64,000 nt of DNA, taken from contig CAWJYZ010000002.1 of NCBI GenBank assembly GCA_963847225.1, positions 269,007-333,006 on the forward strand, given 5' to 3'. The DNA is from an uncultured bacterium. GTDB lineage: Bacteria; Chloroflexota; Dormibacteria; Aeolococcales; Aeolococcaceae. Below, one piece after another: positions 46,281 through 64,000 of this stretch; position 1 is the first letter of the stretch, and each line of letters begins with the position of its first letter. A program made the position numbers and the translations under genes. Below the pieces are notes generated by a model. It saw only the letters and a program-made list of their open reading frames with translations. It was not told the DNA's origin and ran no database searches.

Positions 46281-46353
<73 letters not shown>

Positions 46354-46891: not shown

Positions 46892-47140
46892 TCAGCCACG
46901 AGACGGGCAGTCACTGACATGTCTGACCCGGAGGTCGCGAGCCTTCCCACCACGGGAGATGCGGAGAATCAGCTCGTCCCCGATCTCATGCTGGCGAATC
47001 GCCTTCTGGACGTCCGGGAAGTCTGTAATGGGCTTACCGTCCACCTCGATGAGGCGGTCCCCGCCGAGAACACCGCCCTCAGCAAGCTGACTGCCGCGCC
47101 GGGGAAGCGAGATCGCCAATCCAAGCTCGCCGTCTGCCGC
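46892..47140 (-). pseudogene. C-terminal PDZ-domain remnant of an HtrA/DegP-like protease
   Basis: PDZ-like sequence GGVLGGDRLIEVDGKPITDFPDVQKAIRQHEIGDELILRISRGGKARDLRV. No protease domain lies upstream. A second copy is at 52668-52930. Confidence 0.4.
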
Positions 47141-47144
47141 AGGT

Positions 47145-47762
47145 TCAGCTTCGAGCCAGGAACTCGTTAATCCAACTGCGCCCGGCGGCAGTGCACCCGC
47201 AAATCCCGATGCTGCACATGGGGCAGATACAGCGGCAGTCCTGGCCCTGACGGTGCAGCTCGCCCACGACAACGCTTGGACACAGGCACGTTAATAGGCG
47301 AAGCGCCTTCGTATAAGTGCTGAGGTGCCGCGGTGCGATCTCCCGTAGGTTGGGCTCGTACAGCCGAAGGGCCAGCTCGATCAATGCGGAGTACTCGGTG
47401 ACTGCGAAGCTGCACGCTGCGCAAAAAGTCGACACAACACGAACCGGCTCTCTGGGTGGGTCAGCGAGCAGACGTGTGATCGGCAGTCTCAAATCAGCGG
47501 CCGGCTCCACGCCTTGTCCACGGAGATGGTCCTCGAGCGTTCGTCGCTGGTCTCTGGAGTCCGCTTCGATCGCACGCAGCGATGCGTGAAGAAGAGGATG
47601 CGACAGCATCACGTCCGCCTGGCGGTCAATGGCCTCTTCGATTGCTCTCTCGGTGGCCACCAACGCGCTTACCTGGTCGAAGATAAGGGACGGTAACTCA
47701 TTGATGGAGTTCATAGACGCCGATCTCCTCCCGCCGGTCGTATTCATTCTGAAGGCCTCCAC
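47145..47762 (-). CDS. Hypothetical helical (ferritin/DUF892-like?) protein with a Cys-rich C-terminus (CRCICPMCSIGICGC)
   Basis: Intact 205 aa ORF in copy 1. Its last 9 codons cross the X/Y junction. Confidence 0.45.
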   Translation of the reverse strand: MEAFRMNTTGGRRSASMNSINELPSLIFDQVSALVATERAIEEAIDRQADVMLSHPLLHASLRAIEADSRDQRRTLEDHLRGQGVEPAADLRLPITRLLADPPREPVRVVSTFCAACSFAVTEYSALIELALRLYEPNLREIAPRHLSTYTKALRLLTCLCPSVVVGELHRQGQDCRCICPMCSIGICGCTAAGRSWINEFLARS

Positions 47763-48121
47763 TCTCGTTGAGAGTCCCGGCGGGTGCTTGGTCCGGCTCC
47801 ATAGTCAGGGGCCGAGTGGCTCTGGTTGGTAGCCGCGACCTGGGGCAGCAGCCAGGTGCTGCGGGTCATGCCGACGTAGTCTGGGCCTCTGAGGCTCACC
47901 CCGCTCCTCGACGGCTACCGCGGCTACCTCGCGTCCATACGGGAGGTTCTCATGGGCGGGTGGTCCGACCGTCTCCAGTCGCGGAGCGGCCCTCGAGCGG
48001 CTCTCGGCCACGCGCTTGCCTTCTCCACCTGGCGGTCACTGGTTTGCGAGCAGGATCTTGACGATGAGGCGTCTGTCGAGCTCATGGTTGCCGTGATTCA
48101 GCTTGCTGCTCACGGTAGCTG

Positions 48122-48589
48122 CTACGTAGTGCCCTGTGGGGCTGACGGCGGCGACAAGCCTGCGAAGGGGTCGCGAGCCTCGATGCCCGAGAAGCGGCGG
48201 AAGCCTCGATCACGCGTATAGATCGCAGCCACGCCCTGCTGGCGCATCAGGGTGGCAATGTGCGCGTCAGGGATGTCGTTGCCCCGCGGATGGTCGCCCG
48301 CAGTGCTCCGAAAGAGATCCCAGAAGCCATCATCCTCGCCTGGGGAACGCACGTGAGGCCGGCTCAGAAGCTGGGTCAAGTTGGCGATCGCCTCGGAGGG
48401 GCTGAGAGGGTGGGGCAGGATGCCCGGGTGGGTGACGATGCGCAGATAGCCGAGCGCCACTGGCCAGAAGAGATAGACGAGCTCCGGCCCGGTAGCGATC
48501 TCCTCAAGAAGACTGCGCGCCCGCCGGTGTAGTGGATCCGCCTCGTTGCTCGCGTAGACCAGGATGTTCGCGTCGAGAGTGACGCTCAT
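48122..48589 (-). CDS. vapC: PIN-domain toxin VapC
   Basis: N-terminal LDANILVYA motif with the conserved Asp. ATGA overlap with the upstream antitoxin. Confidence 0.8.
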   Translation of the reverse strand: MSVTLDANILVYASNEADPLHRRARSLLEEIATGPELVYLFWPVALGYLRIVTHPGILPHPLSPSEAIANLTQLLSRPHVRSPGEDDGFWDLFRSTAGDHPRGNDIPDAHIATLMRQQGVAAIYTRDRGFRRFSGIEARDPFAGLSPPSAPQGTT

Positions 48590-48825
48590 CCTGGCTCGTC
48601 GAGGATGGCTCGCACTGCCTCACGGTCCTCCAGGTCGACCCGCGGGCGACCGAGGTTCCGGCTGATCCACCCGAACGGCGGCGCGCCGGCGGCGGCTCCG
48701 CCCCCCGCCAGCGATCGGGCGAGCAGCTCGGACGCCACCTGCCCCATGCTCTTTCCTTCCTCGCGTCCGCGTCGCCGCAGGGCGCGCAGCACGGTGGGAT
48801 CGACGTCCAGGGTCGTCCGGGTCAT
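48586..48825 (-). CDS. vapB: VapB-type antitoxin
   Basis: ATG at 48825 (MTRTTLDVDPTVLRALRRRGREEGKSMGQVASELL). TTATCA TTATCA TCATCA direct repeats at 48837-48854, just upstream, are a candidate operator. Confidence 0.7.
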   Translation of the reverse strand: MTRTTLDVDPTVLRALRRRGREEGKSMGQVASELLARSLAGGGAAAGAPPFGWISRNLGRPRVDLEDREAVRAILDEPG

Positions 48826-49030
48826 GATGCCTGATGTTATCATTATCATCATCAGATGCGCGGCGTGCCTCTACTCAAGGGAGGGAAAGACCGTCCGCAT
48901 CACACTGCAAACGCCCTCGTCCCATTTACTTCCCAGCGGCGAAGTCAAGCTCGGACTTGGACCACTTCCCAGGAAGCAAGTGCCATGTTCCGACGTGGAC
49001 CAGCCTATGCCGGCGACGAAAAACGAGAGC

Positions 49031-49160
49031 GTTTCAATGGCATCAAGAGGTCGGGGGTTCGAGCCCCCCCGTCTCCACTTCGTTGGTATTGCTGGGGTTT
49101 CCCGCGGCATGGTCCGTGCCGAATCGCCTCTCACCGGGCCTCTCTCGCGTCAGTTAAGCG
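49031..49160 (+). repeat. tRNA-Ala 3'-fragment repeat (anticodon arm to 3' end) plus about 85 nt flank; att-like
   Basis: CGTTTCAATGGCATCAAGAGGTCGGGGGTTCGAGCCCCCCCGTCTCCA, then a conserved hairpin-containing flank. The 5' half of the tRNA is absent. Confidence 0.8.
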
Positions 49161-49229
49161 CCTGATCAGCTCAGCCAATCGATCATCAGCGCATTTCAGA
49201 ACGGAGGTGAGGGCTTCCTCGAGGGGACC

Positions 49230-49805
49230 ATGGCAGCGGCGCTTCCGCTCCTCTGGCTCCTTGCGCTGGCACTGCATCTCGCGCGCCCATACATGTTGCG
49301 CACTACTCAGAAGTTCTCACTGCGTTTGGGGGCCGACATTTGGTGGGTGCTATACATTGGGCTCCGAGACATCGTCATGGTCCTCGTGGCCGTCCTGAGC
49401 TTCATGTATCTGTACCCGGACGTGGTCGTCAACGATGCGCTACCGATCAGCGGCTCGCTCGCCACAGTTGCCATCTTTGCCGCCCTCCTAGTGAAGCTGG
49501 TGGCAGACACCGACGACGATCCCCGCGCATTCAAACTCCTGTCCACACTTCTGGGTGCCGGCAGCGCGCTCTACATCGTTCCCACGGTGGTAGGAGTGCA
49601 ACTGGCAGCGGTGGGTACGGGTCCAGTGTGGACGAACCTCGCGAAGGCGCTGGTCACTCACACTGACCAGGGGGTGGCGGTGGCGCTTTGCTGGATCTCG
49701 GTAGCCGCGATCGCCGTCATGGGCTTGGTCGCACTGACCTATGACTTCCGAACGCCAGCTCATAAGAGAGGCAGCCGCGCGCACCGGGGCGTGGCCGGAG
49801 CCTGA
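49230..49805 (+). CDS. Hypothetical integral membrane protein (paralog A)
   Basis: It contains HLARPYMLRTTQKFSLRLGADIWWVLYIGLRD. A second copy starts at 63555 with a 25-aa N-terminal extension. Confidence 0.5.
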   Translation: MAAALPLLWLLALALHLARPYMLRTTQKFSLRLGADIWWVLYIGLRDIVMVLVAVLSFMYLYPDVVVNDALPISGSLATVAIFAALLVKLVADTDDDPRAFKLLSTLLGAGSALYIVPTVVGVQLAAVGTGPVWTNLAKALVTHTDQGVAVALCWISVAAIAVMGLVALTYDFRTPAHKRGSRAHRGVAGA

Positions 49806-49823
49806 TGCGAGAAGGAGCATGAG

Positions 49824-50474
49824 ATGAGCTCAGAAGACATCACCAAGGCCATAACTCACGCGATCACGGCCGGCGGGATGCAGTGGACCGTCGCAACCAT
49901 CGCAGCGTTTATGCCCACCCTGTGGGTGATCACGGTCATCCTTCATCTAGCACGGCCTGTGGTGTTGCGCACCGTTAGGAAGCTGTCCCTGCGCTTTGGC
50001 GCGGACGTGTGGTGGCTCGGGTACGTTCTCGTGCGCGACGCCGTCATGCTGATCACCTTCGCGCTAAGCACGATCTTCTTGTTCCCGACCCTGATGCTCA
50101 CGATTCCGCTTCCGCTCACCGCTCCGCTGGCAGGCCTCGTGCTGTTTGCAAGCCTTTACGTGAAGCTGCTCTACGACGCTGACGACAGTTTCCAGGCATA
50201 CCGCGTGGCAACACTGCTGATGGCGGCCGGAGCCGCGCTCTACCTGATCCCACAGATCATCGGCATCGAATCGACCTCGCAGGGAGCGCTCTCCGGTGTC
50301 GCGTCGTTCCTGACTTCGACGAGCAATACCGGCTGGGCGGGCCCGCTCATGGTTGCCGCCCTGCTTGGGTATATGGGGGTGGCCAGCCTGATCTTCTACC
50401 AGGTAGTCTTCGGCGGCGTGCGTCGTTTAAGGAAGCGGGAGCAGCTTGGCAGAACGACGGGCGTGGCAGCTTAG
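49824..50474 (+). CDS. Hypothetical integral membrane protein (paralog B of 49230-49805)
   Basis: It shares HLARPVVLRTVRKLSLRFGADVWWLGYVLVRD with paralog A. Confidence 0.5.
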   Translation: MSSEDITKAITHAITAGGMQWTVATIAAFMPTLWVITVILHLARPVVLRTVRKLSLRFGADVWWLGYVLVRDAVMLITFALSTIFLFPTLMLTIPLPLTAPLAGLVLFASLYVKLLYDADDSFQAYRVATLLMAAGAALYLIPQIIGIESTSQGALSGVASFLTSTSNTGWAGPLMVAALLGYMGVASLIFYQVVFGGVRRLRKREQLGRTTGVAA

Positions 50475-50780
50475 AGAGGACTTCCGCTCACATCGACGCC
50501 TGAAGGCTAGGGGTACCCGTCATGTCTGCCAGCATGGCTGCGGCGCGCGAAGCTATGGGCATGAGTTGCGCCTGCCTCCGCTGACGAGCCCTACCGTGAA
50601 GCCCTGTGATGCCTGAGCCTGCCGCATCAGCGAACTCGCGGCCCTCAGCTTCGTCTGAGCGTAATCCAGAGATCAGGCTTGATCATTCCCGCCACGAACT
50701 GTGGTGGGAACCGGGGTCCGTGACACCGATAGCTCACCACCTCGTCGTCGGCCACATCGAAGGAACGCTGGGGGGCTGAC

Positions 50781-51155
50781 GTGGCGTCCGTCACCAAATC
50801 GCAGTGTGTGACGACCAGGCGCCAGCGATACCTCGCCGCGGCCTGGGTCTCGAGCGGATACTTCATGGCGGGATCGGTGCTGTCGGGTCTCGGTTTCGGC
50901 ATGGCCTTTCTCGGCGGGCTCCGAGGACTGGTGGTCGTCATACCGGCTGAGCACCGCGGGGCGGTGATGGCCGCCTTCTATATCACCGCCTATGCCTCCC
51001 TGTCGGTGCCCGCGGTCCTTGCTGGGCTCCTTGTGCCGCACTTGGACTTGGCGTCGACCTTCGAGATCTTCGGGAGCGTCGTGGCGGGCATCGCCCTGCT
51101 TGTTACTGCGCAGTCATGGAGAACTCGCCCGCGCTCCTTGGTGCCGCAGCCCTGA
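50781..51155 (+). pseudogene. C-terminal remnant (last about 100 aa, two transmembrane helices) of an MFS transporter
   Basis: Hydrophobic MFS-type tail with no N-terminal 10 helices upstream. Confidence 0.35.
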
Positions 51156-51233
51156 TCAACCGTCGACGCCCCACGGTCCCGCCACGAAGTCGCTCGAAGA
51201 TCCTGATTTGGAGCTCGCCCATTCTGGGGGTGA

Positions 51234-51599
51234 TCAGCGGATCTGCCGCACCCGCCCAGCGCGCCCCCATGCTCGGTCGGCGGTCCAGACCTCCGCGTCG
51301 TGCCGCTCGCCCAGGGCGAGGCAGAGTCGGTCGGCGAGCGAGAACCCCTCTCCTTTCAGCCATCGGCGAGCTGCCCACTCGGCGTCCTCCTCGGTGACCG
51401 GTTCGACGGTGAGCCCATAACTCTGGAGGAGCGCTCGCGCCAGCCCCCAGCTCCTTCCATGCGCCCGCACCTTCTGCGCCACCTCCGACCAATTGGCTGC
51501 CCCACAGACGCCGCCTGCGGCAAGCGCACCTTCGACGACGTCGTGACCGCGTTCGCCCGCCAGGTAGGCGAGGAGAGCCGACGCGTCGAAGACGTTCAG
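51234..51599 (-). CDS. VapC-like PIN-domain toxin with a non-canonical CTG start inside a CTGA stop/start overlap
   Basis: LNVFDASALLAYLAGE... then the PIN C-terminal motif FSLADRLCLALGERHDAEVWTADRAW. There is no in-frame ATG/GTG/TTG upstream of the conserved Asp. Confidence 0.45.
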   Translation of the reverse strand: MNVFDASALLAYLAGERGHDVVEGALAAGGVCGAANWSEVAQKVRAHGRSWGLARALLQSYGLTVEPVTEEDAEWAARRWLKGEGFSLADRLCLALGERHDAEVWTADRAWGRAGRVRQIR

Positions 51600-51841
51600 A
51601 GGGAGTCCTCGGCAGCAGCCTCCTGGCGGCGCTCGGCCAGCAGCTCCCTCACCAGATCCAAACCGGAGAGCTCCGTCCGCACGCGCTCACGAAGCTGTTC
51701 CTGGGTGAGAAGAACGAGGCCGCTCGCCGTCTCGACGAGCGTGAGCGGCGTCCCTTCAGCAAGCCCGGCACGCTCTCGAAGCTCGGCCGGGACGACGATC
51801 CGGCCGCGTTCTCCCATTCTGACTCGATATGTCCCACTCAT
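51596..51841 (-). CDS. AbrB/MazE/SpoVT-family antitoxin
   Basis: ATG at 51841 (MSGTYRVRMGERGRIVVPAELRERAGLAEGTPLTLVE). Confidence 0.6.
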   Translation of the reverse strand: MSGTYRVRMGERGRIVVPAELRERAGLAEGTPLTLVETASGLVLLTQEQLRERVRTELSGLDLVRELLAERRQEAAAEDSL

Positions 51842-52080
51842 ATGACCATCGTACCACAAGCTATATTCGCATGGGCAAGCGGACTTCACCACCGGGCGTG
51901 GGCGGACCGCGGCAGGTGGATGGCGGCGGCGCCGGCGTTATCGCCTCCCGGCACCGAGCAAGCGCCCTCCTCCCATTTACTTCCCAACAGCGGCGGCAAG
52001 CTCTGGCTTGGAGCGCCGCGATGGAAGCAAGCGCTGAACTCGAACTCCACTCAGCCTATGCGCCCGCCAAAGAAGGAGAG

Positions 52081-52220
52081 CGTTCAATGGCATGCAAGAG
52101 GTCGGGGGTTCGAGCCCCCCCGTCTCCACTTCGCTGGTGTTGCTGGGATTTCCCGTGGCACGGTTCGTGCCGGATCGCCTCTTACCGGGCCTGGCCGGCG
52201 TCAGTTAAGCGCTCTCTTGC
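52081..52220 (+). repeat. tRNA-Ala 3'-fragment repeat plus flank; this copy matches the flank of the intact tRNA
   Basis: GAGAGCGTTCAATGGCATGCAAGAGGTCGGGGGTTCGAGCCCCCCCGTCTCCA, followed by 92 nt identical to 46354-46445. Confidence 0.8.
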
Positions 52221-53044
52221 AGAGCCCCTCCGGAAGCAAGCTCGGAGGATCTTCGGTGGCCCTGGTGCGATTTGGCCCGTCTCTTCGCCGCCTGCTGGAG
52301 GTCATCGCGCCAAACCCCCCAACGCACGCCGTCGCGTGGCCGGCGGCCGCCGGCCTCCAGCGGAACCTCGAATACCATTGATATCACTGCGCATTCGGGA
52401 TTCCCGATCCTTCGCTCCGACGGTCGGCTCCCCGACGGCTTCCCGAGCTCCCGCCCGAGGGGCTCCTGATCGCAGCAGTCAAGCGCGCTTGAAGGGACGC
52501 CCCAAGAGGACGACGAGATCAAGCCAGCTCACACGCTGCCCAGGATCCTTCTCAGGCAACGGTGATCCGAGCGATGAGCGAGCGCACCGGCCACGTATAC
52601 AGGTACAGGCGAGTCTGCATAGTTGCACGAAACCGTCGCGATACGGCGCGTGGTCAAAGAGCGAACCTCAGCCACGAGACGGGCAGTCACTGACATGTCT
52701 GACCCGGAGGTCGCGAGCCTTCCCACCACGGGAGATGCGGAGAATCAGCTCGTCCCCGATCTCATGCTGGCGAATCGCCTTCTGGACGTCCAGGAAGTCT
52801 GTAATGGGCTTACCGTCCACCTCGATGAGGCGGTCCCCGCCGAGAACACCGCCCTCAGCAAGCTGACTGCCGCGCCGGGGAAGCGAGATCGCCAATCCAA
52901 GCTCGCCGTCTGCCGCAGGTTCAGCTTCGAGCCAGGACTGGTTAACCCCGATCATTCACGCCGACAGGTGATCGGAGAGGAGCCCCGGCGCGAAAGCGCC
53001 CTCCGGTAAGGGAAACTGGCGTGGACCAAAACTCCAGCAACCCA

Positions 53045-54940
53045 ACCAGGAGGGGTAGAGTAGGCGACTGGTTCAGCGTAGGCCTCCCCAGCCGCCCCTC
53101 ATCGAACCGTGCATGAGGTTCTCCCTCACACGGCTCTCCGACGGTGTTCACGTGACCCCTATCGCAGGCGCGCCATACCGGATCGTCCCAGTGAGGCAGT
53201 ACACACCGAGGCGCTGATACCAGTCATGGGTGTGCGCGGTGCCCCAGCGCCGTCCAGACTTCTGATGCTTCTTGCTGTCGAAAAGCGCCAGTCGCTCATG
53301 AACGTAGCAGTCGATCTGGTCGAACTTCTGCGTCGAGTTGCCCCAGCGGAAGAAGTTGCTCCAGCCTCGGAGGACCGGGTTGAGCTCAGCGACCAACGCA
53401 CCGATCGGCCACTTCAGACGGGATCGCGGAGCCGTGATCGCCTTGACCTTGGCCCTGATCGACGCCATCGCACGTCGCGACGGCCAGCGGTGCAAGTACC
53501 GCCGCCCATACCGGAAGGACCTGACCATGCGCAGATGGAACCCCAGAAAGTCGATGCCATCGGCCCCGTCACCCATGCTCACAATCCGGGTCTTGTCCGG
53601 GTGGAGCTGAAGGTCGAGGGCTTGGGCCCGATTCTGGAGCCAGCGAAGGGCATTGCGCGCGTCGGTTTCGCTCCGACACAGAATCACGCCATCATCGGCG
53701 AAGCGCAGCCACGTACCGAGAGGCTTCGCCTCCTTCTCAAAGAGGGCGTCGAGGGCATGGCCGTAGATGTTGCTGAGCAAGGGGCTGACCGTCCCGCCTT
53801 GCGGAACGCCCGTGCTGGAGACGACGATGCCGTGCTCCATCACACCCGCTCGCAGCCACATCCGAATGAGCCGCAGCACCCGGCGATCGCTCACTCGCCT
53901 CGCCACCAACCTGAGCAACAGATCGGGGTCAAGGCTGCCGAAGAAGTCCTTGAAGTCCAACTCGACGATCCACCACGCCCCACGGTTCACCTCCGAGCGG
54001 ATGCGTTCCAGCGCTTGGTGTGCACTCCGCCTCGGCCGAAACCCGTATGAGCAGGGGAGAAAGCCGGCCTCAAACAACGGCTCCAACACCAGCTTGGCCG
54101 CGGTCTGGAGCACCCGATCACGGACCCGGGGGATTCCGAGCCCGCGCCGCTCCTGCGGCCGCCCTGGCTTGGGGATGTAGACCCTGCGCACTGCCTGTGG
54201 ACGGTACCGCCCGCTCAGCAGTAGCCCGCGCAACTCCACCAGCATCCGCTCCACCCCGTAGGCTTCGATCGCCTCGATGGTCTCGCCGTCGATGCCGGCA
54301 GCGCCCCGATTGCGTCGGACCTGTTCCCAGGCTCGCCGCAACACATCTGGCCGAGCTATCCGGTCGTAGAGAGCATGAAACCTCCTCTGACGGTTCTGCT
54401 TTGCGGCCACGTAAAGCGTGCGCTGAAGTGCGCGGACTTTGTCGTCGGGGTGGTTGGCTCTCGCCATGCCCTCATCCGCCCCTTGCTGCGCACACGCCAC
54501 CGAAGTGCGGGTCCTTCCCTACGCCGAGTTCTGTTGTCTCGGCGATCATTGGTACAGATATGACCCGCTCCAACTCCCTCCGCACCGCCCCGGACTTCGG
54601 TGTGGCCTTATACCGGGACAAGCTTCCGCGGCGATCGACACGCCGTCGGGTGCGGGAGGGCCTCCCCAGTTGACCGATCGGCCTTCCCTGCATGCCGTCG
54701 CCTCTACGCCGGAGCGATTCCGGGATGCTCCAGAACCCAAGTCCCGGACTGCAGCCTTCGCCCACAAGTGCCAGGCTCGGCTCGCTCAATCCCTCACGGG
54801 TCACTTTCACGACGCGGCAGCGTTCACGTAATGTTGCGGCCTGCAGGTTCGCTTCTTCTCGCTTCGACGCCCACCTCTCGATGAACGTCGGAGATTGACT
54901 ACCCGGCTCCTCTGGCGGCTTGCCGGGACGGGACTCGCAC
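53045..54940 (-). mobile_element. Bacterial group II intron (about 1.9 kb), minus strand
   Basis: The 5' end GTGCGAG is at 54940 (minus strand). Domain V GAGCCGTGTGAGGGAGAACCTCATGCACGGTTC occupies 53137-53105. An RT/maturase ORF lies in domain IV. The 3' end is approximate. Confidence 0.7.
53148..54467 (-). CDS. Group II intron reverse transcriptase/maturase (no obvious HNH endonuclease domain)
   Basis: RT blocks RVYIPKPGRPQERRGLGIP, VELDFKDFFGSLD, GVPQGGTVSPLLSNIY and LRFADDGVIL, plus the maturase X domain. Confidence 0.85.
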   Translation of the reverse strand: MARANHPDDKVRALQRTLYVAAKQNRQRRFHALYDRIARPDVLRRAWEQVRRNRGAAGIDGETIEAIEAYGVERMLVELRGLLLSGRYRPQAVRRVYIPKPGRPQERRGLGIPRVRDRVLQTAAKLVLEPLFEAGFLPCSYGFRPRRSAHQALERIRSEVNRGAWWIVELDFKDFFGSLDPDLLLRLVARRVSDRRVLRLIRMWLRAGVMEHGIVVSSTGVPQGGTVSPLLSNIYGHALDALFEKEAKPLGTWLRFADDGVILCRSETDARNALRWLQNRAQALDLQLHPDKTRIVSMGDGADGIDFLGFHLRMVRSFRYGRRYLHRWPSRRAMASIRAKVKAITAPRSRLKWPIGALVAELNPVLRGWSNFFRWGNSTQKFDQIDCYVHERLALFDSKKHQKSGRRWGTAHTHDWYQRLGVYCLTGTIRYGAPAIGVT

Positions 54941-54982
54941 TCGCTGGTTGATCGGCCCTTGGCTGGGCACACCACTTGCGAA

Positions 54983-56350
54983 GTGAACGGTACCAGCACG
55001 GCACGGGTGAGGGTGGAGGCGGGCGGCGACCAGGTCGTGGGCCATGTCGGGTTGCACGCCTTGGGGGCCTTCGCCGACCACCTGGGGCTGGGTGATGCCC
55101 TCTCGGCGCGCATCCAGGCGATCCAGGGGCGGTTGCCGCTCCATGACCGAGGCAAGGTCCTGGTCCACGCCATGCTGATGCTGGCTGGCGGAGGTGAGTG
55201 CTGCGCCGACATCGAGCACCTTCGAATCGAGCCCGAGCTGTTCGGCGAGGTCTGCTCGGACTCCACCCTGTACCGGACCCTGCGCAGCCTCGATGGCCCG
55301 ACCGTGGCGGCGGTGAAAGAGGCCATGGCTGAGATCCGGGCCAGGGTGTGGCGACGGCTGCCGGCGGCCACGCGGGGTCCGGTGGTGCTGGACATGGATG
55401 CTTCGCTGGTGGAGATCCACTCCGAGAACAAGGAGGAGACGGGCCCCACTTACAAGGGTGGCTTCGGCTTCCACCCGCTGCTCTGCTTTGCCGACGCTAC
55501 CGGCGAGACCCTGGCCGGCTTGTTGCGACCCGGCAATGCCGGGGCCAACACCGTGGCCGACCACCTCCAGGTGCTCGATGAGGCTCTCGCCCAGCTGCCG
55601 CGCTGGATCGCGAAGGGCCACCACCCCGGCGACCGGCCAGCCGAGGCCCGCCGAACGATCGTGGTGCGCGCCGACTCGGCGGGGTGTACTGAGGGCTTCG
55701 TGAGGGGCTGCCGCCAGCGCAACCTCGGCTTCAGCGTGGTGGCCCGCTCCAACTCGCAGATCCACACGGCGATCTCGCGGGTGGTGGACGACGAGAAGAG
55801 CTGGCGGCCGGCGATCCGCCAGGACGGCGAGCCTCGGACCGGGGCCTCGGTGAGCGAGGTCACCGAGCTCTGCGATCTCGCGTCCTGGCCATCGGGAACG
55901 CGCCTGATCGTCCGCCGGGAGCCGTTGCACCAGGGCGCCCAGCAGAGCCTGTTCCCGTCCTTGGAGTACCGGTACTGGGGCTTCTACACCGATCAGGAGG
56001 GCAGCCCCGTCGAGGTCGACCGCTTCATGCGCGCTCATGCCCATGTCGAGGACCACATCTGCCGGCTCAAGGATTCCGGGCTGTTGCGCTTCCCCTTCAC
56101 CAGCTTCGAGGCCAATTGCGCCTGGCTGGCGGTGGTGGGCTTCGCCGCCGACCTGGTGCGCTGGTTCCAGTTGCTCTGCCTCCGCGGCGGTCTGGCCGTC
56201 GCCGAGCCCAAGGCGCTGCGCCGGCGGCTCTGGGATGCGCCGGCACGGATCGTCCGTTCGGCCCGACAGACCATCGTCCGGGTTCTCCGGGGCTGGCCTG
56301 ATGGCGACGCCATCCTCACCGCCTACCAGCGCCTCGCTGTCATTGGCTGA
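54983..56350 (+). CDS. IS1380-family DDE transposase
   Basis: RVRVEAGGDQVVGHVGLHALGAFADHLGL is the typical IS1380 N-terminus; about 455 aa. The start is uncertain (GTG 54983, TTG 54959 or CTG 54944). The ORF-track start at 54920 lies inside the intron. Confidence 0.75.
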   Translation: MNGTSTARVRVEAGGDQVVGHVGLHALGAFADHLGLGDALSARIQAIQGRLPLHDRGKVLVHAMLMLAGGGECCADIEHLRIEPELFGEVCSDSTLYRTLRSLDGPTVAAVKEAMAEIRARVWRRLPAATRGPVVLDMDASLVEIHSENKEETGPTYKGGFGFHPLLCFADATGETLAGLLRPGNAGANTVADHLQVLDEALAQLPRWIAKGHHPGDRPAEARRTIVVRADSAGCTEGFVRGCRQRNLGFSVVARSNSQIHTAISRVVDDEKSWRPAIRQDGEPRTGASVSEVTELCDLASWPSGTRLIVRREPLHQGAQQSLFPSLEYRYWGFYTDQEGSPVEVDRFMRAHAHVEDHICRLKDSGLLRFPFTSFEANCAWLAVVGFAADLVRWFQLLCLRGGLAVAEPKALRRRLWDAPARIVRSARQTIVRVLRGWPDGDAILTAYQRLAVIG

Positions 56351-56565
56351 CGCCGACCGCTGCGCCGCTTCATTTCGCCATCACCAACCCTGCGCTGCTT
56401 CAAGCACGCCCTGCCTCAGCGCCACCGAGCCCACACAGTCAGGGACGCGGCCGCTTCGCGCCGTCACCGGCGACCCAATGACCGTTCACGGCGACCTGGC
56501 GAGCCGGAATCGCGCCGACGGGGGCCTGTCGACCGCCTTCCGTGCACCTGCATGAATGATCGGGG

Positions 56566-57161
56566 TTAATCCAACTGCGCCCGGCGGCAGTGCACCCGCA
56601 AATCCCGATGCTGCACATGGGGCAGATACAGCGGCAGTCCTGGCCCTGACGGTGCAGCTCGCCCACGACAACGCTTGGACACAGGCACGTTTAATAGGCG
56701 AAGCGCCTTCGTATAAGTGCTGAGGTGCCGCGGTGCGATCTCCCGTAGGTTGGGCTCGTACAGCCGAAGGGCCAGCTCGATCAATGCGGAGTACTCGGTG
56801 ACTGCGAAGCTGCACGCTGCGCAAAAAGTCGACACAACACGAACCGGCTCTCTGGGTGGGTCAGCGAGCAGACGTGTGATCGGCAGTCCCAAATCAGCGG
56901 CCGGCTCCAGCCTTGTCCACGGAGATGGTCCTCGAGCGATCGTCGCTGGTCTCTGGAGATCGCTTCGATCGCACGCAGCGATGCGTGAAGAAGAGGATGC
57001 GACAGCATCACGTCCGCCTGGCGGTCAATGGCCTCTTCGATTGCTCTCTCGGTGGCCACCAACGCGCTTACCTGGTCGAAGATAAGGGACGGTAACTCAT
57101 TGATGGAGTTCATAGACGCCGATCTCCTCCCGCCGGTCGTATTCATTCTGAAGGCCTCCAC
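56566..57161 (-). pseudogene. Cys-rich ferritin-like gene, copy 2, disrupted
   Basis: Relative to copy 1 it has a +1 indel (about 56690), a -1 indel (about 56906), and the IS1380 inserted 9 codons before the stop. It is split into ORFs 56566-56892 and 56781-57161. Confidence 0.7.
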
Positions 57162-57520
57162 TCTCGTTGAGAGTCCCGGCGGGTGCTTGGTCCGGCTCCA
57201 TAGTCAGGGGCCGAGTGGCTCTGGTTGGTAGCCGCGACCTGGGGCAGCAGCCAGGTGCTGCGGGTCATGCCGACGTAGTCTGGGCCTCTGAGGCTCACCC
57301 CGCTCCTCGACGGCTACCGCGGCTACCTCGCGTCCACACGGGAGGTCCTCATGGGCGGGTGGTCCCACCGTCTCCAGTCGCGGAGCGGCCCTCGAGCGGC
57401 TCTCGGCCACGCGCTTGCCTTCTCCACCTGGCGATCACTGGTTTGCGAGCAGGATCTTGACGATGAGGCGTCTGTCGAGCTCATGGTTGCCGTGATTCAG
57501 CTTGCTGCTCACGGTAGCTG

Positions 57521-57987
57521 CTACGTAGTGCCCTGTGGGGCTGACGGCGGCGACAAGCCTGCGAAGGGGTCGCGAGCGTCGATGCCCAAGAAGCGGCGGA
57601 AGCCTCGATCACGCGTATAGATCGCAGCCACGCCCTGCTGGCGCATCAGGGTGGCAATGTGCGCGTCAGGGAAGTCGTTGCCCGCGGATGGTCGCCCGCA
57701 GTGCTCCGGAAGAGATCCCAGAAGCCATCATCCTCGCCTGGGGAACGCACGTGAGGCCGGCTCAGAAGCTGGGTCAAGTTGGCGATCGCCTCGGAGGGGC
57801 TGAGAGGGTGGGGCAGGATGCCCGGGTGGGTGACGATGCGCAGATAGCCGAGCGCCACTGGCCAGAAGAGATAGACGAGCTCCGGCCCGGTAGCGATCTC
57901 CTCAAGAAGACTGCGCGCCCGCCGGTGTAGTGGATCCGCCTCGTTGCTCGCGTAGACCAGGATGTTCGCGTCAAGAGTGACGCTCAT
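57521..57987 (-). pseudogene. vapC: vapC copy 2 with a 1-nt deletion frameshift
   Basis: GCCCCGCGG in copy 1 is GCCCGCGG here. The C-terminal third of the PIN domain is replaced by RATTSLTRTLPP*. Confidence 0.7.
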
Positions 57988-58223
57988 CCTGGCTCGTCGA
58001 GGATGGCTCGCACTGCCTCACGGTCCTCCAGGTCGACCCGCGGGCGACCGAGGTTCCGGCTGATCCACCCGAACGGCGGCGCGCCGGCGGCGGCTCCGCC
58101 CCCCGCCAGCGATCGGGCGAGCAGCTCGGACGCCACCTGCCCCATGCTCTTTCCTTCCTCGCGTCCGCGTCGCCGCAGGGCGCGCAGCACGGTGGGATCG
58201 ACGTCCAGGGTCGTCCGGGTCAT
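57984..58223 (-). CDS. vapB: VapB antitoxin, copy 2 (intact)
   Basis: Identical protein to the copy at 48586-48825. Confidence 0.65.
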   Translation of the reverse strand: MTRTTLDVDPTVLRALRRRGREEGKSMGQVASELLARSLAGGGAAAGAPPFGWISRNLGRPRVDLEDREAVRAILDEPG

Positions 58224-58428
58224 GATGCCTGATGTTATCATTATCATCATCAGATGCGCGGCGTGCCTCTACTCAAGGGAGGGAAAGACCGTCCGCATCA
58301 CACTGCAAGCGCCCTCGTCCCATTTACTTCCCAGCGGCGAAGTCAAGCTCGGACTTGGACCACTTCCCAGGAAGCAAGTGCCATGTTCCAACGTGGACCA
58401 GCCTATGCCGGCGACGAAAAACGAGAGC

Positions 58429-58572
58429 GTTTCAATGGCATCAAGAGGTCGGGGGTTCGAGCCCCCCCGTCTCCACTTCGTTGGTATTGCGGGGGTTTCC
58501 CGCGGCATGGTCCGTGCCGAATCGCCTCTCACCGGGCCTCTCTCGCGTCAGTTAAGCGCTCTCTTGCAGAGC
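58429..58572 (+). repeat. tRNA-Ala 3'-fragment repeat plus flank (variant matching 49031-49160)
   Basis: Same variant bases as the 49031 copy (GGCATGGTCCGTGCC hairpin, CTCACCGGGCCTCTCTCGCG). Confidence 0.8.
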
Positions 58573-58591
58573 CCTTAGCGCCCCCTTAGCG

Positions 58592-60658
58592 CCGATTCTC
58601 GCGTCGCCAGCTGCGGGATGAGGTGAGGAGGGTCGGGGCAGGTCCGGGTGATATGGACTTCCGGGCCAGCGCTGGGGAATCGCGGCAGGGAGGCGAAGCC
58701 ATCACGGAGAGTGCTGGGTGGATCTAGCTGTCTGTAACCATGGTCAACTCCGAGGTGGTCCGCGGGCCAGGGTGGTGAGTTGAGCGACTCATCCAACTGA
58801 TTCGCTGCAGTTCCATTGCAATTACAGCCAACTCCTGCGCAACGAGCTTGACCTCCCTCGGAGAGTGTGATTTCATATCGTCATGGAACAGGCAGCGATA
58901 TCACCCCCAGCCAGGGCCGGGGGTGAGTTCTTCGCTGTTCCGTCCACCCCCCTCCAGCGCCGCTACGAAGCCCTGCGGGCCTACCTCTACGAGGGCAGCC
59001 CCGCCGCCGAGGCCGCCGCCCGTTTCGGCTACTCGACGGTGAGCCTCCTCTCCGCCGTCCGGGACTTCCGCGCCGGTCAGCGCGACTTCTTCCGGATCCC
59101 GCGGCCGGGGCCTCACTCGGCGCCGGCCAAGGAGGCGGCCCGGGCCCGGGTGGTGGAGCTCCGCCGCCAGGGTTACTCCGCCTACGAGATCGCCGCGGCG
59201 CTGGCCTTGACGGACACCCCACTGAACCGACTGGGGTGGCCGAGGTGCTTGCCGAAGAAGGGCTGCCCCGGCTCTGGCCGCGTCCATACGCGGCGCGTGG
59301 AGGGCCGCGCCGCGAGGTGCTGCGGCGCGCTGAGGCGCTGGACTTCAGCGCTCTCCCGGAGCGCAGCGAGACCCGGGTGGCGGGGCTGTTGCTTGCCATC
59401 CCCGAGCTGGTGGCGCTGGACCTTCCCACCCTGGTCAAGGCGGCCGGCTACCCCGGGACCTCGGTCATCCCCGCCCTCTCCTCGATCGCCTCGCTGCTCG
59501 CCCTCAAGCTGGTGGCGATCCGGCGGGTCAGCCATGTCGACGACATCGCCACCGACGTCGGCGCCGGGCTCTTCGCCGGGCTGGTCGCGCTGCCCAAGGC
59601 AACGGCGCTGACCACCTACTCATATCGCACCGACCACCGCCAGCAGCGCCGCTTCCTCCACGCCCTGGGCCAGGCGATGGCGGGCAGCGGGCTGGCGGCT
59701 GGCGATGAGTTCGACCTCGACTTCCACGCGGTGATGCACTGCGGCGAGGACGCCGTCCTGGAGAAGCACTACGTGCCCAAGCGCTCGCAGCAGACCCGCT
59801 CGGTGCTCACCTTCTTCGCCCAGGACGGCAGGACCCACAACCTGGTCTACGCCGACGCCGACCTGCACAAGGCCACTCAGGCCCATGCGGTGATCGACTT
59901 CTGCGACCACTGGCGCTCGGTGAGCGGTCGCGACCCCGGTCTCTTGGTCTTCGACTCCAAGCTCACCACCCAGGAGATGCTGGGTCTCCTCGATGCTCGC
60001 GGGGTGCGCTTTCTCACCCTGCGGATGCGCAGCCCCTCGCTCACCTCCAGGATCGCCGCTCTGCCGGCAAGTGCCTGGCGCACCGTCGCCCTGGACCGCG
60101 ACGGCGAGTACCGCAAGCCCCAGGTGGCCGAGGATCCCGCAGCCCGGCTGACGGAGTACCCCGGCACCGTCCGCCAGCTGGTGGTCCGCGGCCTCGGTCG
60201 GGAGGCGCCGACGGTCCTGATCACCAACGACCGCGCCGCCACCACCAAGACCCTGATCGAGCGCTACGCCCGGCGGATGACCATCGAGCAGCGCCTCGCC
60301 GAGGCGATCCGCAGCTTCCACATCGACGCCCTGAGCTCGGCGGTCCCCCTCAACGTGGATCTCGACGTCGTCCTGTCGGTGCTGGCCAGCGCTGTCTGCG
60401 GCTCGCTCCGTCGCCGGCTCCGTGGCTACGAAACCGCCACCCCCGACACCCTGCAGCGCCGCTTCCTCTCCACCAGTGGGGTCATCCTCAACCGCCCAGA
60501 CGGGATCGTGGTCCAGCTTGCCCGCCACACCTACTCACCCGTCCTCCGCTCCGCCGACCTCCCCACGGTCGTCGTCCCCTGGTGGGGCGACCGCCGCCTC
60601 AGGTTCGAGTTCCGCTGAGGCCCGGGATTGGGGTCGATTTCGCTGCGCGAGAATCGGC
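58592..60658 (+). mobile_element. IS element (IS4/IS1634-like, about 2.07 kb) with a frameshifted transposase
   Basis: Imperfect terminal inverted repeats CGCCGATTCTCGCG at 58592-58605 and CGCGAGAATCGGCG at 60645-60658, flanked by TTAG on both sides. The transposase is split across 58883-59230 (HTH part) and 59236-60618 (DDE part, with LITND and Y-x2-R-x3-E). Confidence 0.6.
58883..60618 (+). pseudogene. DDE transposase interrupted by a frameshift near 59225-59240 (or a programmed frameshift)
   Basis: There are two overlapping frames. The fused protein would be about 575 aa. Confidence 0.55.
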
Positions 60659-60724
60659 GTTAGCTGGACGGTGGCGCTTGCCGTCGGGCAGCTGGCGGCG
60701 CTCCTGACCCAGCGACGCCCTCGC

Positions 60725-61483
60725 TTACCCGTCGGTGAGATGGTGCTCAAGCGCGTACCGCACTGCCCCCGTGCGTGACCTGACGCCCGCCTTGATGAAG
60801 ATGTTGTGGACGTGCTGATCCGCTGTCCGCGGCCCGATGCCAAGCTCGCGCGCGATCGCTCGATTCGTCAGGCCGCGAGCCATCAGATGCAGGACCTCCA
60901 TCTCCCGGGGGGTGAACGGCATCACCAGCGGAGCCCGAGGTGCCCCGAGCGACAGGGTGACGTCACCGCCCAGCCCGTCCGGTATGACGGTGGCACCGTA
61001 GTAGACACTTCGAATAGCCGCCAGCAGCGCTTGACCGTGAGCGGACTTCAGCATGTAGCCGGAGGCACCCGCGAGGAAGGCTTCCCGTGCGCACTCGGGA
61101 TGTGCGGTCAGTATCAACACCCGTAGCGTCGTGTACGTCGCTCGCAGCCGCCTCGTGGCATCGATGCCGCCCATTCCTGGCATTCGAGCCTCCATGACGA
61201 CGATATCGACCTGTCGCTGGGCGACGAACGCGAGGGCTTGCTCCGCGCCCTCGGCCTCGCCGAGTACAAGCATGTCCGGGCAGCCCTGAAGCAAAGCCCG
61301 GATCCCTTGTCGCATGAGTGGGTGAGCATCGGCGATCAGGACGCGGATGACCGGAGCCGTCTGGACGGCTGCATCCTCACCTCCTGGAGCGGGGTCTCGT
61401 CGAAGGCCATCTGCCGACTTCGGGGCCACCGGGGTCCAGCCCGCCGGCTCGGACGAGCCCATGTACGTAGTGGAGTCGAGCAT
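60725..61483 (-). CDS. NarL/FixJ-family response regulator (REC plus LuxR helix-turn-helix)
   Basis: ATG at 61483 with a GGAGAC RBS. REC motifs RVLIADAH and VDIVVMEARMPGMGGID. LuxR HTH REMEVLHLMARGLTNRAIARELGIGPRTADQHVHNIFIK. The rest of ORF 60725-62914 is antisense to the next gene. Confidence 0.8.
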   Translation of the reverse strand: MLDSTTYMGSSEPAGWTPVAPKSADGLRRDPAPGGEDAAVQTAPVIRVLIADAHPLMRQGIRALLQGCPDMLVLGEAEGAEQALAFVAQRQVDIVVMEARMPGMGGIDATRRLRATYTTLRVLILTAHPECAREAFLAGASGYMLKSAHGQALLAAIRSVYYGATVIPDGLGGDVTLSLGAPRAPLVMPFTPREMEVLHLMARGLTNRAIARELGIGPRTADQHVHNIFIKAGVRSRTGAVRYALEHHLTDG

Positions 61484-61612
61484 CCGAATACGTCTCCAGG
61501 ATCTTACGTACAAGTCAAACGCTGAAATGCCGGGCCGACTAGAGACTTTCGGCCCTTGTTGAACGGGCCGACCGCCCCCACCGTATAGCCATCCCGTGCC
61601 GGGGAGACAGCC

Positions 61613-63558
61613 ATGCCGTACAGATTCGAGTTCAACCGCTCCGAGTGCCTCAACTGCGGCGTCTGCATGGACGTCTGCCCAGTTCAGGCACTCGACATGA
61701 CGCGGACCACGACCCCATCGATCGAATCCGGTATCCGAGCAACGGCGCTGCGCGAGCAGCCCTGGATGATGGAGTTCCCCATCCAGGCGAAAGAGTGCAT
61801 CGGATGCGAGCTCTGCTCGACCGAGTGTCCGACCGGCTGCATCGAGGTCAGGGCGGTCCCGGGCACGGTCGAGCTGGTGGCGCCGCAGGGACCCACGTAT
61901 CGCGACCCTGGGCCGGTCACAACCTGGGCGCCGCTGGCCCCATACACGATGGAGTCCCTGAAGGAGGTGCACTCCGACCCCTGGGGGAAGCTCGCCCACT
62001 GGCAGGCGGCTAAGCGCGAGGGTGCCTGGCAGGTGTGGCGCAGTTGGGGCGGCGATGGCGAAGGTTCTGGGACGAGTGCTCTCGTCGCGCCGTGCCAGGA
62101 GGCCTGCCCCGTCGGCACCAACGCCGGCTTGTATGTCGCCCTGGTTGGTGAGGGCCGCTATGCGGAAGCCTTCGCCGTGGCCGCCGAGTTCAATCCGTTC
62201 CCCTCGGTCTGCGGCCGTGTGTGCACCGCGCCTTGCGAGATCGCCTGCCGGCGCGCTGTTGTCGATGAGCCGATTGCGATCCGCGAGTTGAAGCGCTTTG
62301 CCGCTGATTACGGGGGGTCCGGCTACCCGGCGGCGCCGCCTCCGGAGCAGCGCAGGTCCGAACGAGTGGCGATCGTCGGGGCAGGTCCAGGCGGCCTCGG
62401 GGCCGCCTACCTTCTGGCGCGAGCCGGCTACTCGGTGACGATCTTCGAGGCGATGCCCGTTGCCGGCGGCATGATGGCGATCGGCATTCCCGAGTACCGC
62501 CTGCCGAAGCGCGTCCTCCAGGCCGAGATCGATCGGATTCTCGGGCTGGGGGTCGAGCTTCGCGTCAATTCGGCGTTGGGCCGGGACTTCACGCTGGACG
62601 GTCTGCGGCGCGACGGCTACGACGCGATCCTCATCGCAACGGGTGCTCCGATGAGCCAGCCCCTGCGGGTTGCGGGCGAGGAGTTGCACGGAGTCTGGCC
62701 GGCAACCGTCTTTCTCAAGCGCGTGAACCTCGGCGAGAAGGTCAAGTTGGGCGGTGACGCGCTGGTCGTGGGCGGCGGGTCCACAGCGATGGATGCCGCG
62801 CGCTCCGCCTGGCGGGCCGGGGCCGGCACAGTGCGGGTGCTCTACCGGCGCACCCGCGAGGATATGCCGGCGCAGGAAGAGGAGCTCCGGGCCGCAGAGC
62901 TCGAGGGGGTCCACATCGATGAGTTGCTCGCTCCATCGAGATCCTCGGCCGGCAGGGGCGGATGACGCACGTCCGGTGCCAGCGGATGGCTGTGACCGGG
63001 AGAGATGAGAACGGGCGCAGCACCATCATTCCCGTTCCAGGCAGTGCCTTTGACATTCCCGCACGGACGCTCCTGATTGCGATCGGCGAGGCGCCCGATC
63101 CGTCTATCCTACCCGAGGGCTCCAGCATCGAGGTCGCGCAGTGGGGCGGTCTGCTCACCGACTCCGAGACGCTGATGACGGCTCAGCCTGGCGTCTTCGC
63201 GGCAGGCGATGTGGCAACCGGACCCAAGAGCATCATCGAAGGTGTGGCCCAGGGGCAGCGCGTCGCGTGGGCGATCGACCGCTATCTGCGCGGGTTGCCC
63301 ATGGATCACTACACACCGCCTTGGCGATACCGGCCTGCGCGCTTCGCGACCGATAGGATGGTCATCGACCTCAGCAACCGCCAACGGGCGATCATCCCGC
63401 TGGCCACGCGGGACCAGGTCGAACGCGTGGACCTCTACCAAGAGGTGTCGATCGGCTTTGGCGAGCCAGACGCTCAGCGTGAGGCGCAGCGTTGCCTGCA
63501 CTGCGATGTCATCGCATCTTGCCAAGTGGTCAACGTGATAAGGGAGGTGACCGCATGA
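61613..63558 (+). pseudogene. GltD/PreT/SudA-like NAD(P)H-dependent Fe-S flavoprotein oxidoreductase with an N-terminal 2x[4Fe-4S] ferredoxin domain, split by a frameshift
   Basis: Motifs CLNCGVCMDVCP, CIGCELCSTECP, CQEACPVGTNAG..CGRVCTAPCEIAC, VAIVGAGPGGLGAAYLLA and GVFAAGD. Frame 2 ends at 62965. The family-conserved SIEILGRQGRMTHVRCQRM continues in frame 1 from about 62925. Confidence 0.55.
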
Positions 63559-64000
63559 CACCTGATCAGCTCAGCCAATCGATCATCAACGCATTTCAGA
63601 ACGGAGGTGAGGGCTTCCTCGAGGGGACCATGGCAGCGGCGCTTCCGCTCCTCTGGCTCCTTGCGCTGGCACTGCATCTCGCGCGCCCATACATGTTGCG
63701 CACTACTCAGAAGTTCTCACTGCGTTTGGGGGCCGACATTTGGTGGGTGCTATACATTGGGCTCCGAGACATCGTCATGGTCCTCGTGGCCGTCCTGAGC
63801 TTCATGTATCTGTACCCGGACGTGGTCGTCAACGATGCGCTACCGATCAGCGGCTCGCTCGCCACAGTTGCCATCTTTGCCGCCCTCCTAGTGAAGCTGG
63901 TGGCAGACACCGACGACGATCCCCGCGCATTCAAACTCCTGTCCACACTTCTGGGTGCCGGCAGCGCGCTCTACATCGTTCCCACGGTGGTAGGAGTGCA
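63555..64000 (+). CDS. Integral membrane protein paralog A, copy 2 (3' end runs off the window), with a 25-aa N-terminal extension
   Basis: ATG at 63555 after a GGAGGTGA, giving an ATGA overlap with the upstream stop. From 63559 the DNA is near-identical to 49161 onward. Confidence 0.5.
   Translation, partial: MTPDQLSQSIINAFQNGGEGFLEGTMAAALPLLWLLALALHLARPYMLRTTQKFSLRLGADIWWVLYIGLRDIVMVLVAVLSFMYLYPDVVVNDALPISGSLATVAIFAALLVKLVADTDDDPRAFKLLSTLLGAGSALYIVPTVVGV

Follow-up and report, generated by a model that had tools for sequence, protein, structure and literature searches.

Introduction

The closest described relatives of the locus analyzed here are type II VapBC toxin–antitoxin pairs, insertion sequences (ISs) of the IS1380 family, bacterial group II introns, tRNA-linked islands with tandem amplification and, for one protein, YciE/YciF (DUF892) and the PDZ domains of HtrA and RseP. 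We analyzed a stretch of 64,000 nt from an uncultured bacterium of the Dormibacteria (contig CAWJYZ010000002.1; the whole stretch is called the window), in which positions 52129-58428 are a second copy of a 2.87-kb module, X-Y, that contains one gene for a ~270-aa ferritin-like/Cys6/PDZ protein and one vapBC pair. We read the locus, with a probability of roughly 0.7, as a duplicated tRNA-linked island in which copy 2 of the gene is split by an IS, copy 1 is truncated, and the single-base insertions and deletions (indels) are slightly likelier to be consensus errors than mutations. On this reading, the locus would probably represent ordinary island turnover plus sequencing noise.

Each component is of a known kind: VapBC, IS1380, a group II intron nested in a mobile element, and a tandem island linked to a tRNA gene. 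Other mobile elements are a common home of bacterial group II introns, and the intron found here resembles that class in having domains D1-D4 and DV-DVI, a reverse transcriptase (RT)/maturase open reading frame (ORF) in domain IV, GUGCG/AY ends, and a position within a mobile element; it differs in that no endonuclease domain was detected. The vapBC pairs match the type II arrangement, with a small upstream antitoxin gene that overlaps a PIN-domain toxin gene by 4 nt, a toxin that scores above the family cut-off, and a location on an accessory island. In contrast to typical pairs, the antitoxin's match to a ribbon-helix-helix (RHH) model is sub-threshold, the toxin–antitoxin function is only predicted, and the broken toxin of copy 2 depends on one base that is not found in a second assembly. 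The IS has the hallmarks of the IS1380 family, namely a match to NF033539, short perfect inverted repeats, a 4-bp TTAA duplication and a length of ~1.7 kb without the intron, but it carries a 1.9-kb antisense group II intron between its left end and the start of the transposase gene. A TTAA target is common to this element and to piggyBac, and IS1380 transposases form a prokaryotic outgroup to piggyBac (PMC10813416).

Like tRNA-linked islands that amplify in tandem, the locus is a low-GC island at a tRNA 3' end, with direct repeats of that 3' end, an attP-like junction between units, and T-stem changes that look imported. Unlike them, it has no integrase in the window or within 2.3 kb past the island end, its repeats reach ~100 nt beyond the tRNA, and one unit carries an illegitimate deletion. 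In structural models, the N-terminal domain of the ferritin-like/Cys6/PDZ protein is predicted to resemble YciE and XCC3681 and its C-terminal domain the PDZ domains of HtrA and RseP proteases, whereas the Cys6 linker was not seen in the reference structures 3ogh and 3hiu (which were not checked systematically) and the N-terminal domain has no sequence-family match. Mildly novel are the nesting of an intron in an IS in a gene, the att-like modules without an integrase, and the unnamed protein family. Mobile elements are nested at this locus, with a group II intron inside an IS1380 element that in turn interrupts a gene of a duplicated tRNA-linked island. Its main lesson is one of caution: a contrast between an intact and a decaying copy that was drawn from one assembly fails when the protein family and a second assembly are compared.

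Results

Two copies of the X-Y module

A blastn comparison of the window with itself aligned 46299-47170 with 52075-52945 at 98.9% identity and 47166-49161 with 56565-58559 at 99.0% identity, upholding the first-pass annotation of this DNA in its claim of a duplicated islet. The parts of the two copies are as follows.

46299-49161: copy 1 of the module, comprising core c, X, Y and pseudo-tRNA t1 (blastn against copy 2; difference list)
52130-52945: copy 2, X part, including a detached PDZ-coding remnant at 52668-52945 on the minus strand (ORF list; blastn; difference list)
56566-57161, minus strand: copy 2, N-terminal part of the Cys-rich (ferritin-like/Cys6/PDZ) gene (ORF list; difference list; comparison with the second assembly, protein P0035)

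Pairwise alignment of the copies, a check that the first-pass annotation had proposed, gave 29 differing columns. Relative to copy 1, copy 2 has the three 1-nt indels reported earlier (+T at 56690, −C at 56909 and −C at 57680), and three more indels separate the copies at 46307, 46669 and 47161. Two of the three reported indels had been placed in short C/G runs; this applies only to 57680 (C4 to C3), the others being a change of TT to TTT and the loss of a lone C.

An independent assembly of the locus was found through its identical VapB protein. This 16.8-kb contig (ENA ERZ25039538 contig_42610; L014, also L052) aligns with window positions 52108-64000 at 99.47% identity over 11.9 kb, with 52 substitutions and 11 indel columns. 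In a three-way comparison over the 2-kb Y part, copy 1 alone differed at 13 sites, showing that L014 is orthologous to copy 2; copy 2 of the window alone differed at 6 sites (3 indels and 3 substitutions), 5 of which lie within 270 bp, and L014 alone differed at none. L014 has 15 private differences in X and 0 in Y. Divergence between the repeat units is likewise uneven (~0.8% in Y, 0.25% in X and 0.13-0.23% in Z, the remainder of the unit), a pattern that suggests gene conversion or recombination between copies or strains.

The ferritin-like/Cys6/PDZ gene is disrupted in both copies as assembled

The gene of copy 1 is found at the following position.

46892-47762, minus strand: copy-1 ferritin-like/Cys6/PDZ gene (homologues; PDZ_2 match; frame-corrected alignment)

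As assembled, this gene consists of a 205-aa ORF (47145-47762) and an out-of-frame PDZ part (46892 to ~47140), the two being split by an extra base at 47161/47162. The out-of-frame ORF directly after the stop (46892-47272) matches PDZ_2 in Pfam at 1e-8. Of the 33 database homologues, most are 255-295 aa long and most carry PDZ at the C terminus; the helical part and the PDZ part always share one frame in 13 metagenome loci. When one base of the AA at 47161/47162 is removed, the product of copy 1 can be aligned with the family over its full length and keeps all invariant residues, including the terminal ...RVRHVSD.P motif. Copy 2 has the in-frame length at the equivalent position (..SWINQSWLEAEP..). 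The 205-aa ORF is, in the sequence as assembled, a frameshift-truncated form of a ~270-aa PDZ protein that stops at residue 205 with its PDZ domain in another frame, and the description of the copy-1 gene as intact does not survive the comparison with its homologues. The frameshift lies only 6-10 nt from the site equivalent to the IS insertion in copy 2.

In copy 2, the IS severs the PDZ domain (~75 codons) rather than a few terminal codons. The insertion had been placed nine codons before the stop; its actual distance is ~7 codons from the stop of the 205-aa ORF and ~75 from the gene's true end. The PDZ-coding remnant that it detaches (52668-52945) has kept the reading frame of the upstream part. 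The disrupting IS is reproduced in both the window and L014, as expected for a pseudogene. Within the window, the N-terminal part of copy 2 also carries two of the indels (56690, +T; 56909, −C) and three private substitutions, all of them non-synonymous (56889, 56939 and 56959), whereas the corresponding gene of L014 (P0035) is open from its start to the IS junction.

In an AlphaFold model of the full-length protein (pLDDT 80.7), a four-helix bundle is joined to a PDZ domain by a Cys-rich loop of poor model quality. In Foldseek searches, the predicted bundle matched YciE (3ogh) and XCC3681 (3hiu) with TM scores of 0.87-0.91 normalised to the target and E-values of about 7e-3 to 1.4e-2, and the predicted C-terminal domain matched HtrA/RseP PDZ domains; the E-values are weak overall (3e-3 to 1e-2). 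An invariant CxCxCPxCxxxxCxC motif joins bundle and PDZ domain, and no Pfam model matched the N-terminal domain. Together, the ferritin-like, Cys6 and PDZ parts define a conserved but unnamed family. Its members (proteins P0002-P0034) occur in soil and sediment metagenomes. A metagenome scan with the family alignment returned sequences of at most 60% identity and no near-identical copy, and hence no added outgroup for the indels; in the same scan, the family was not linked to vapBC or to tRNA-Ala.

The insertion in copy 2 is an IS1380 element that carries a group II intron

The inserted element and its parts are listed here.

52946-56565, plus strand: IS1380-family element of 3,620 bp, intron included; terminal inverted repeats of 13 bp, CCCCGATCATTCA (alignment; Pfam; NCBIfam)
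52942-52945 (left) and 56566-56569 (right): TTAA target-site duplication; the empty site in copy 1 is a single TTAA at 47167-47170
54983-56350, plus strand: IS1380-family transposase, 455 aa from GTG (NF033539; DDE_Tnp_1_4, 2e-58; identical gene call in L014)
53055-54940, minus strand: group II intron of 1,886 nt, nested in the IS1380 element (Rfam RF02005 and RF00029)
53148-54500, minus strand: intron-encoded RT/maturase, 450 aa (TIGR04416; RVT_1; GIIM)

Membership of the IS1380 family is indicated both by the transposase, which matches NCBIfam NF033539 with 304.3 bits (cut-off 180) over model positions 2-419 of 419, and by the inverted repeats, which are perfect over 13 bp, together with the target duplication. 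The earlier report of an IS1380 insertion in copy 2 is correct to this extent, but the element is not a plain IS and the complete group II intron inside it had been overlooked. Without the intron, the element is ~1.73 kb long, a typical size for an IS.

Within the element, the intron follows the left inverted repeat and precedes the GTG start of the transposase gene (54983). Its predicted RNA domains match RF02005 (D1-D4) at 54700-54937 with 58.9 bits (threshold 49) and RF00029 (DV-DVI) at 53055-53138 with 55.2 bits (threshold 40), its boundaries are a 5' GUGCG at 54940-54936 and a 3' UAC at 53057-53055, and its RT/maturase matches TIGR04416 with 374.7 bits (cut-off 300). RNA domains, RT/maturase and GUGCG...AY boundaries together support its assignment to the group II introns as judged from sequence features. 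No endonuclease domain was detected in the intron-encoded protein. Being antisense to the transposase gene, the intron cannot leave transposase mRNA by splicing, and it separates that gene from any promoter in the left end of the IS. It sits in the loop of a 7-bp IS hairpin, CAACCAG...CTGGTTG (53042-53054 and 54941-54955), 43 nt upstream of the transposase start.

The intron-bearing element is inserted at the identical TTAA in the window and in L014, and 3.4 kb of it (52946-56385) show zero differences between the two. At its right end, 2 substitutions and 4 indel columns separate the assemblies within 57 bp (56386-56442), owing either to a poor local consensus in one of the two or to hypervariability at this spot. 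The 5 nt beside the IS breakpoint exist in three versions, one each in copy 1, copy 2 and L014.

The vapBC pairs

Both copies of the module contain vapC and vapB.

48122-48589, minus strand: vapC copy 1, 155 aa, PIN domain (TIGR00028; Pfam PIN)
48586-48852, minus strand: vapB copy 1, 88 aa, overlapping vapC by 4 nt (ORF list; FitA-like RHH)
57521-57987, minus strand: vapC copy 2 (ORF list; difference list; comparison with L014)
57984-58250, minus strand: vapB copy 2, identical in DNA to copy 1 and to L014

The product of vapC copy 1 is a predicted member of the VapC toxin family, matching TIGR00028 with 126.4 bits (cut-off 73.6). The FitA-like RHH match of VapB is weak (19.7 bits, below the cut-off of 27), and VapB has no NCBIfam match. 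In the window, vapC copy 2 is split after residue 101 by −C at 57680, and this deletion, if real, would cost the PIN domain its C-terminal third and, with it, conserved acidic residues. In L014, vapC is full-length (155 aa; P0039). Three replacements in copy-2 VapC, I to F, S to L and E to D, are common to the window and L014; the homologue P0037 from JGI agrees with copy 1 at these positions, which polarises the replacements as derived in copy 2. The observation that vapB is intact in copy 2 stands, given its DNA identity to copy 1, whereas the proposed state of an intact antitoxin with a broken toxin comes down to the 1-nt deletion at 57680, and L014, with the identical IS, encodes the complete toxin. 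The firm signs of decay in copy 2 are the IS insertion and the three VapC replacements only.

A second pair of the toxin–antitoxin type lies next to block u' (described below) and consists of a gene for a MazE/AbrB-type antitoxin at 51596-51892 and a PIN ORF that is open from ~51590 to 51234. This PIN ORF (51234-51590) has no canonical start before its conserved N-terminal Asp, and the arrangement is identical in L014.

The module belongs to a tRNA-Ala island with rearranged units

The tRNA gene, the tRNA-like repeats and the flanking repeat units are as follows.

46281-46354, plus strand: tRNA-Ala(GGC) (ARAGORN; Rfam RF00005, 62.5 bits)
49025-49160, plus strand: pseudo-tRNA t1, core plus ~80 nt of the downstream block, ending at the junction at 49160/49161 where GCGC abuts CTGATCAG
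49161-52074: Z1, the rest of repeat unit 1, with 5'-truncated Zmem1, Zmem2, an MFS fragment, the PIN ORF, the MazE/AbrB antitoxin and block u'
52075-52129, plus strand: pseudo-tRNA core t2, the junction of the repeat units, with upstream block u' and a core of the t_end type, and with the start of X downstream
58423-58574, plus strand: pseudo-tRNA t3 and downstream block; the next 15 nt repeat the start of X exactly
63555-64000, plus strand: native Zmem1 (Z'), with its own ATG (63555) and ribosome-binding site, running off the window

The tRNA-Ala(GGC) gene is the only functional tRNA gene in the window, and the GC content is 70.6% before it and 65.7% after it. The repeated core c is the 3'-terminal 56 nt of the tRNA (46299-46354), a copy of which opens each repeat unit. 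It recurs at 49025, 52075 and 58423, each time with a related ~118-nt block before it and a related ~100-nt block after it, and is also present in L014 as t_end. The three pseudo-cores carry paired compensatory T-stem changes, with GGGGG/CCCCC in place of the GGGAG/CTCCC of the real tRNA-Ala (46325-46345 compared with 49050-49070, 52100-52120 and 58448-58468). This suggests that the pseudo-cores derive from another tRNA-Ala allele, as element-borne att sites do.

Beyond the window, the island in L014 ends with t_end, whose identity to t2 stops at the tRNA 3' end, where unrelated DNA begins. Therefore, t2 joins the right end of the island to its left end. Plain unequal crossing-over anywhere in the repeats was considered as the origin of t2 and was refined, the switch being placed within the last ~12 nt of the tRNA-like core. 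The repeat also extends beyond X-Y: 49161-49600 matches 63561-64000 at 99.8% identity, and the direct repeat unit (X-Y-Z) is thus at least 5.8 kb long. Z1 (2.9 kb) is 99.83% identical to Z' of L014, with four substitutions and one non-coding 1-nt indel.

Zmem1 in Z1 starts at codon 3, right after ...AGTTAAGCGC, without a ribosome-binding site and the first two codons, and the junction of GCGC with CTGATCAG lacks homology. The order of genes for a LuxR-type regulator, a GltD-like oxidoreductase, Zmem1 and Zmem2 is kept in 13 of 13 related loci (L001-L013) and in L014. These loci come from Dormibacterota, Chloroflexota and one Nitrosotalea-labelled metagenome-assembled genome (MAG) and are relatives at 60-73% amino-acid identity. 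The conserved order indicates that the context of Z' is ancestral and that the junction of t1 with Z1 is derived. Unit 1 has lost ~5 kb by illegitimate deletion, comprising a second IS (IS2), the LuxR and GltD genes and the first two codons of Zmem1.

Of the features expected of a genomic island, the locus has border repeats of the tRNA 3' end in direct orientation and a change in GC content, and a cognate integrase was not found. Neither the island ORFs scanned with Pfam nor the precomputed Pfam entries in the 2.3 kb past t_end in L014/L052 included an integrase or recombinase, which could lie elsewhere in the genome. We propose that t2 was made either by recombination between the tRNA and the far-end pseudo-tRNA or by re-integration of an excised circle beside a resident copy. 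Unit 1 would later have lost its ~5 kb. In unit 2, an IS1380 element, either already with the group II intron or receiving it later, entered the TTAA and parted the PDZ domain from the rest of the gene, and copy-2 VapC gained its three replacements. A bolder and rather doubtful view is that X-Y might be an integrase-less mobile islet that targets tRNA-Ala, is moved by a recombinase encoded elsewhere, can pile up in tandem and is stabilised by VapBC, with a cargo family that might bind metal or sense redox. The att-like module of such an islet would comprise the upstream block, a 56-nt imported tRNA core with the compensatory T-stem changes, and the downstream block.

Single-base indels and competing explanations

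Relative to L014, the window has five private 1-nt frameshifts (56690, 56909, 57680, 59229 and 62932), in addition to the extra base of copy 1 at 47161/47162. L014 lacks all five. The last two lie in neighbouring single-copy genes. The 1-nt deletion at 59229 splits the IS2 transposase into helix-turn-helix (HTH) and DDE ORFs in the window, where L014 has a single ORF of 578 aa, and −C at 62932 (CCC to CC) splits the GltD-like gene into ORFs of 450 and 198 aa. The GltD-like protein is one ORF of 620-680 aa in L014 (648 aa), in 13 of 13 related genomes and in ~120 database homologues. The frameshifts in copy-2 vapC and in the Cys-rich gene are not reproduced in L014, although L014 is a different strain and its sequence is not proof of error. 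Exact look-ups of window products (the copy-1 ORF, the 200-aa P0001, vapC1, GltD a/b, the 113-aa VapC and LuxR) found no record in an index that does not hold the window's contig, and are uninformative for that reason; a homologue search with the intact GltD-like protein found no near-identical short-read contig spanning 62932.

The balance tips slightly toward the single-base indels being errors in the consensus, left when long metagenomic reads were assembled across a repeated region that varies between strains. The first-pass annotation had itself cautioned that the indels might be sequencing errors. In Nanopore data, indels are the dominant error type and yield false pseudogenes in MAGs (PMC8103633). 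Five private frameshifts per 52 substitutions are a very high ratio for strain divergence, one of them hits the conserved single-copy GltD-like gene, and the PDZ remnant of copy 1 is perfectly preserved, retaining every invariant residue. Differences also cluster tightly, as is typical of a poor local consensus, with five in 270 bp (56690-56959) and six in 57 bp (56386-56442), and the three 5-nt versions at the IS breakpoint have the pattern that clipped reads at a structural-variant boundary would leave. Alternatively, all of the 1-nt indels may be real and private to this strain, with the whole island decaying (both PDZ genes, copy-2 vapC, the IS2 transposase and the GltD-like gene), an account that we consider tentative yet still substantial. 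Several observations weigh for it and against consensus error. The window and L014 are different strains (52 substitutions, 0.44% divergence), and true divergence between them could account for the indels. The frameshifts cluster in the island, whereas 20 core ORFs in 1-46 kb have full Pfam domain coverage and none is split, which speaks against an error-ridden assembly overall; domain coverage was used here in place of a GC3 frame-plot of 1-46 kb, which was too noisy owing to antisense shadows. Errors would also have to be non-uniform, given the identity of the 3.4-kb stretch of IS and intron to L014 and the few differences in Z1, and most of the indels lie outside long homopolymers. All five window-private frameshifts fall in genes whose loss is plausibly tolerable, the private substitutions in the dead N-terminal fragment are all non-synonymous (3/3), and GltD and LuxR together have 4 synonymous and 7 non-synonymous changes between the window and L014, consistent with relaxed selection. 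The judgement on the indels was made from assembled sequences; copy 1 is covered by no independent assembly; and the order of duplication, deletion and IS insertion is a reconstruction rather than an observation.

Two further explanations concern the duplication itself. The first-pass annotation had proposed a recent duplication followed by pseudogenisation of copy 2 alone, through the IS1380 element and three real indels, with copy 1 fully intact and an intact antitoxin stably paired with a broken toxin. Part of this history holds, in that the indels are present in the sequence, vapB is identical in the two copies, and the IS and the three derived VapC replacements are found in two assemblies. 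As a whole, however, we consider it improbable: copy 1 is damaged too, with its PDZ part out of frame after the stop of a truncated ORF; unit 1 has undergone rearrangement as well, through the loss of ~5 kb and of the Zmem1 start; and L014, which has the identical IS, has an intact vapC and no frameshifts. It is more improbable still that the duplication is an artefact in which the assembly chained in tandem the haplotypes of two strains, of which one carries the IS and the other the 5-kb deletion. In favor of such chaining, strains vary in this region, the L014 contig breaks off precisely within the repeated core, and its core, at one informative site, is like the true tRNA and not like t2. 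Logan contig L053 (run ERR11594399) equals 49190-51323 exactly and stops beside two single-nucleotide polymorphisms that separate Z1 from Z'; the Z1 and Z' alleles co-occur in this sample, an observation that alone does not separate two copies from two strains. The t2 junction, however, would occur in neither single-copy haplotype, the 56 nt shared with the true tRNA are too short for a long-read overlap, and the junction of t1 with Z1 lacks homology, so that real molecules must carry it. We favor a duplicated island with an IS-split gene in copy 2 and a truncated gene in copy 1.

Neighbouring genes

To the right of copy 2 lie the following features, ahead of native Zmem1.

~58586-60664, plus strand: second IS (IS2), ends approximate, imperfect inverted repeat ...CGCCGATTCTCGCG
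60725-61483, minus strand: LuxR-type response regulator
61613-63558, plus strand: GltD-like Fe-S/FAD oxidoreductase

The IS2 transposase has weak matches only, to IS1380 and IS481 models. We rejected the idea that 58.6-63.6 kb is one inserted element, since only ~58586-60664 is an IS and the LuxR-GltD-Zmem genes are in their conserved native order. Zmem1 and Zmem2 (49230-50474; 63555-64000) encode paralogous membrane proteins of ~216 aa that belong to no Pfam or NCBIfam family. In the related loci, the Zmem pair always follows the GltD-like oxidoreductase gene and a divergent LuxR regulator gene, forming a conserved uncharacterised cluster.

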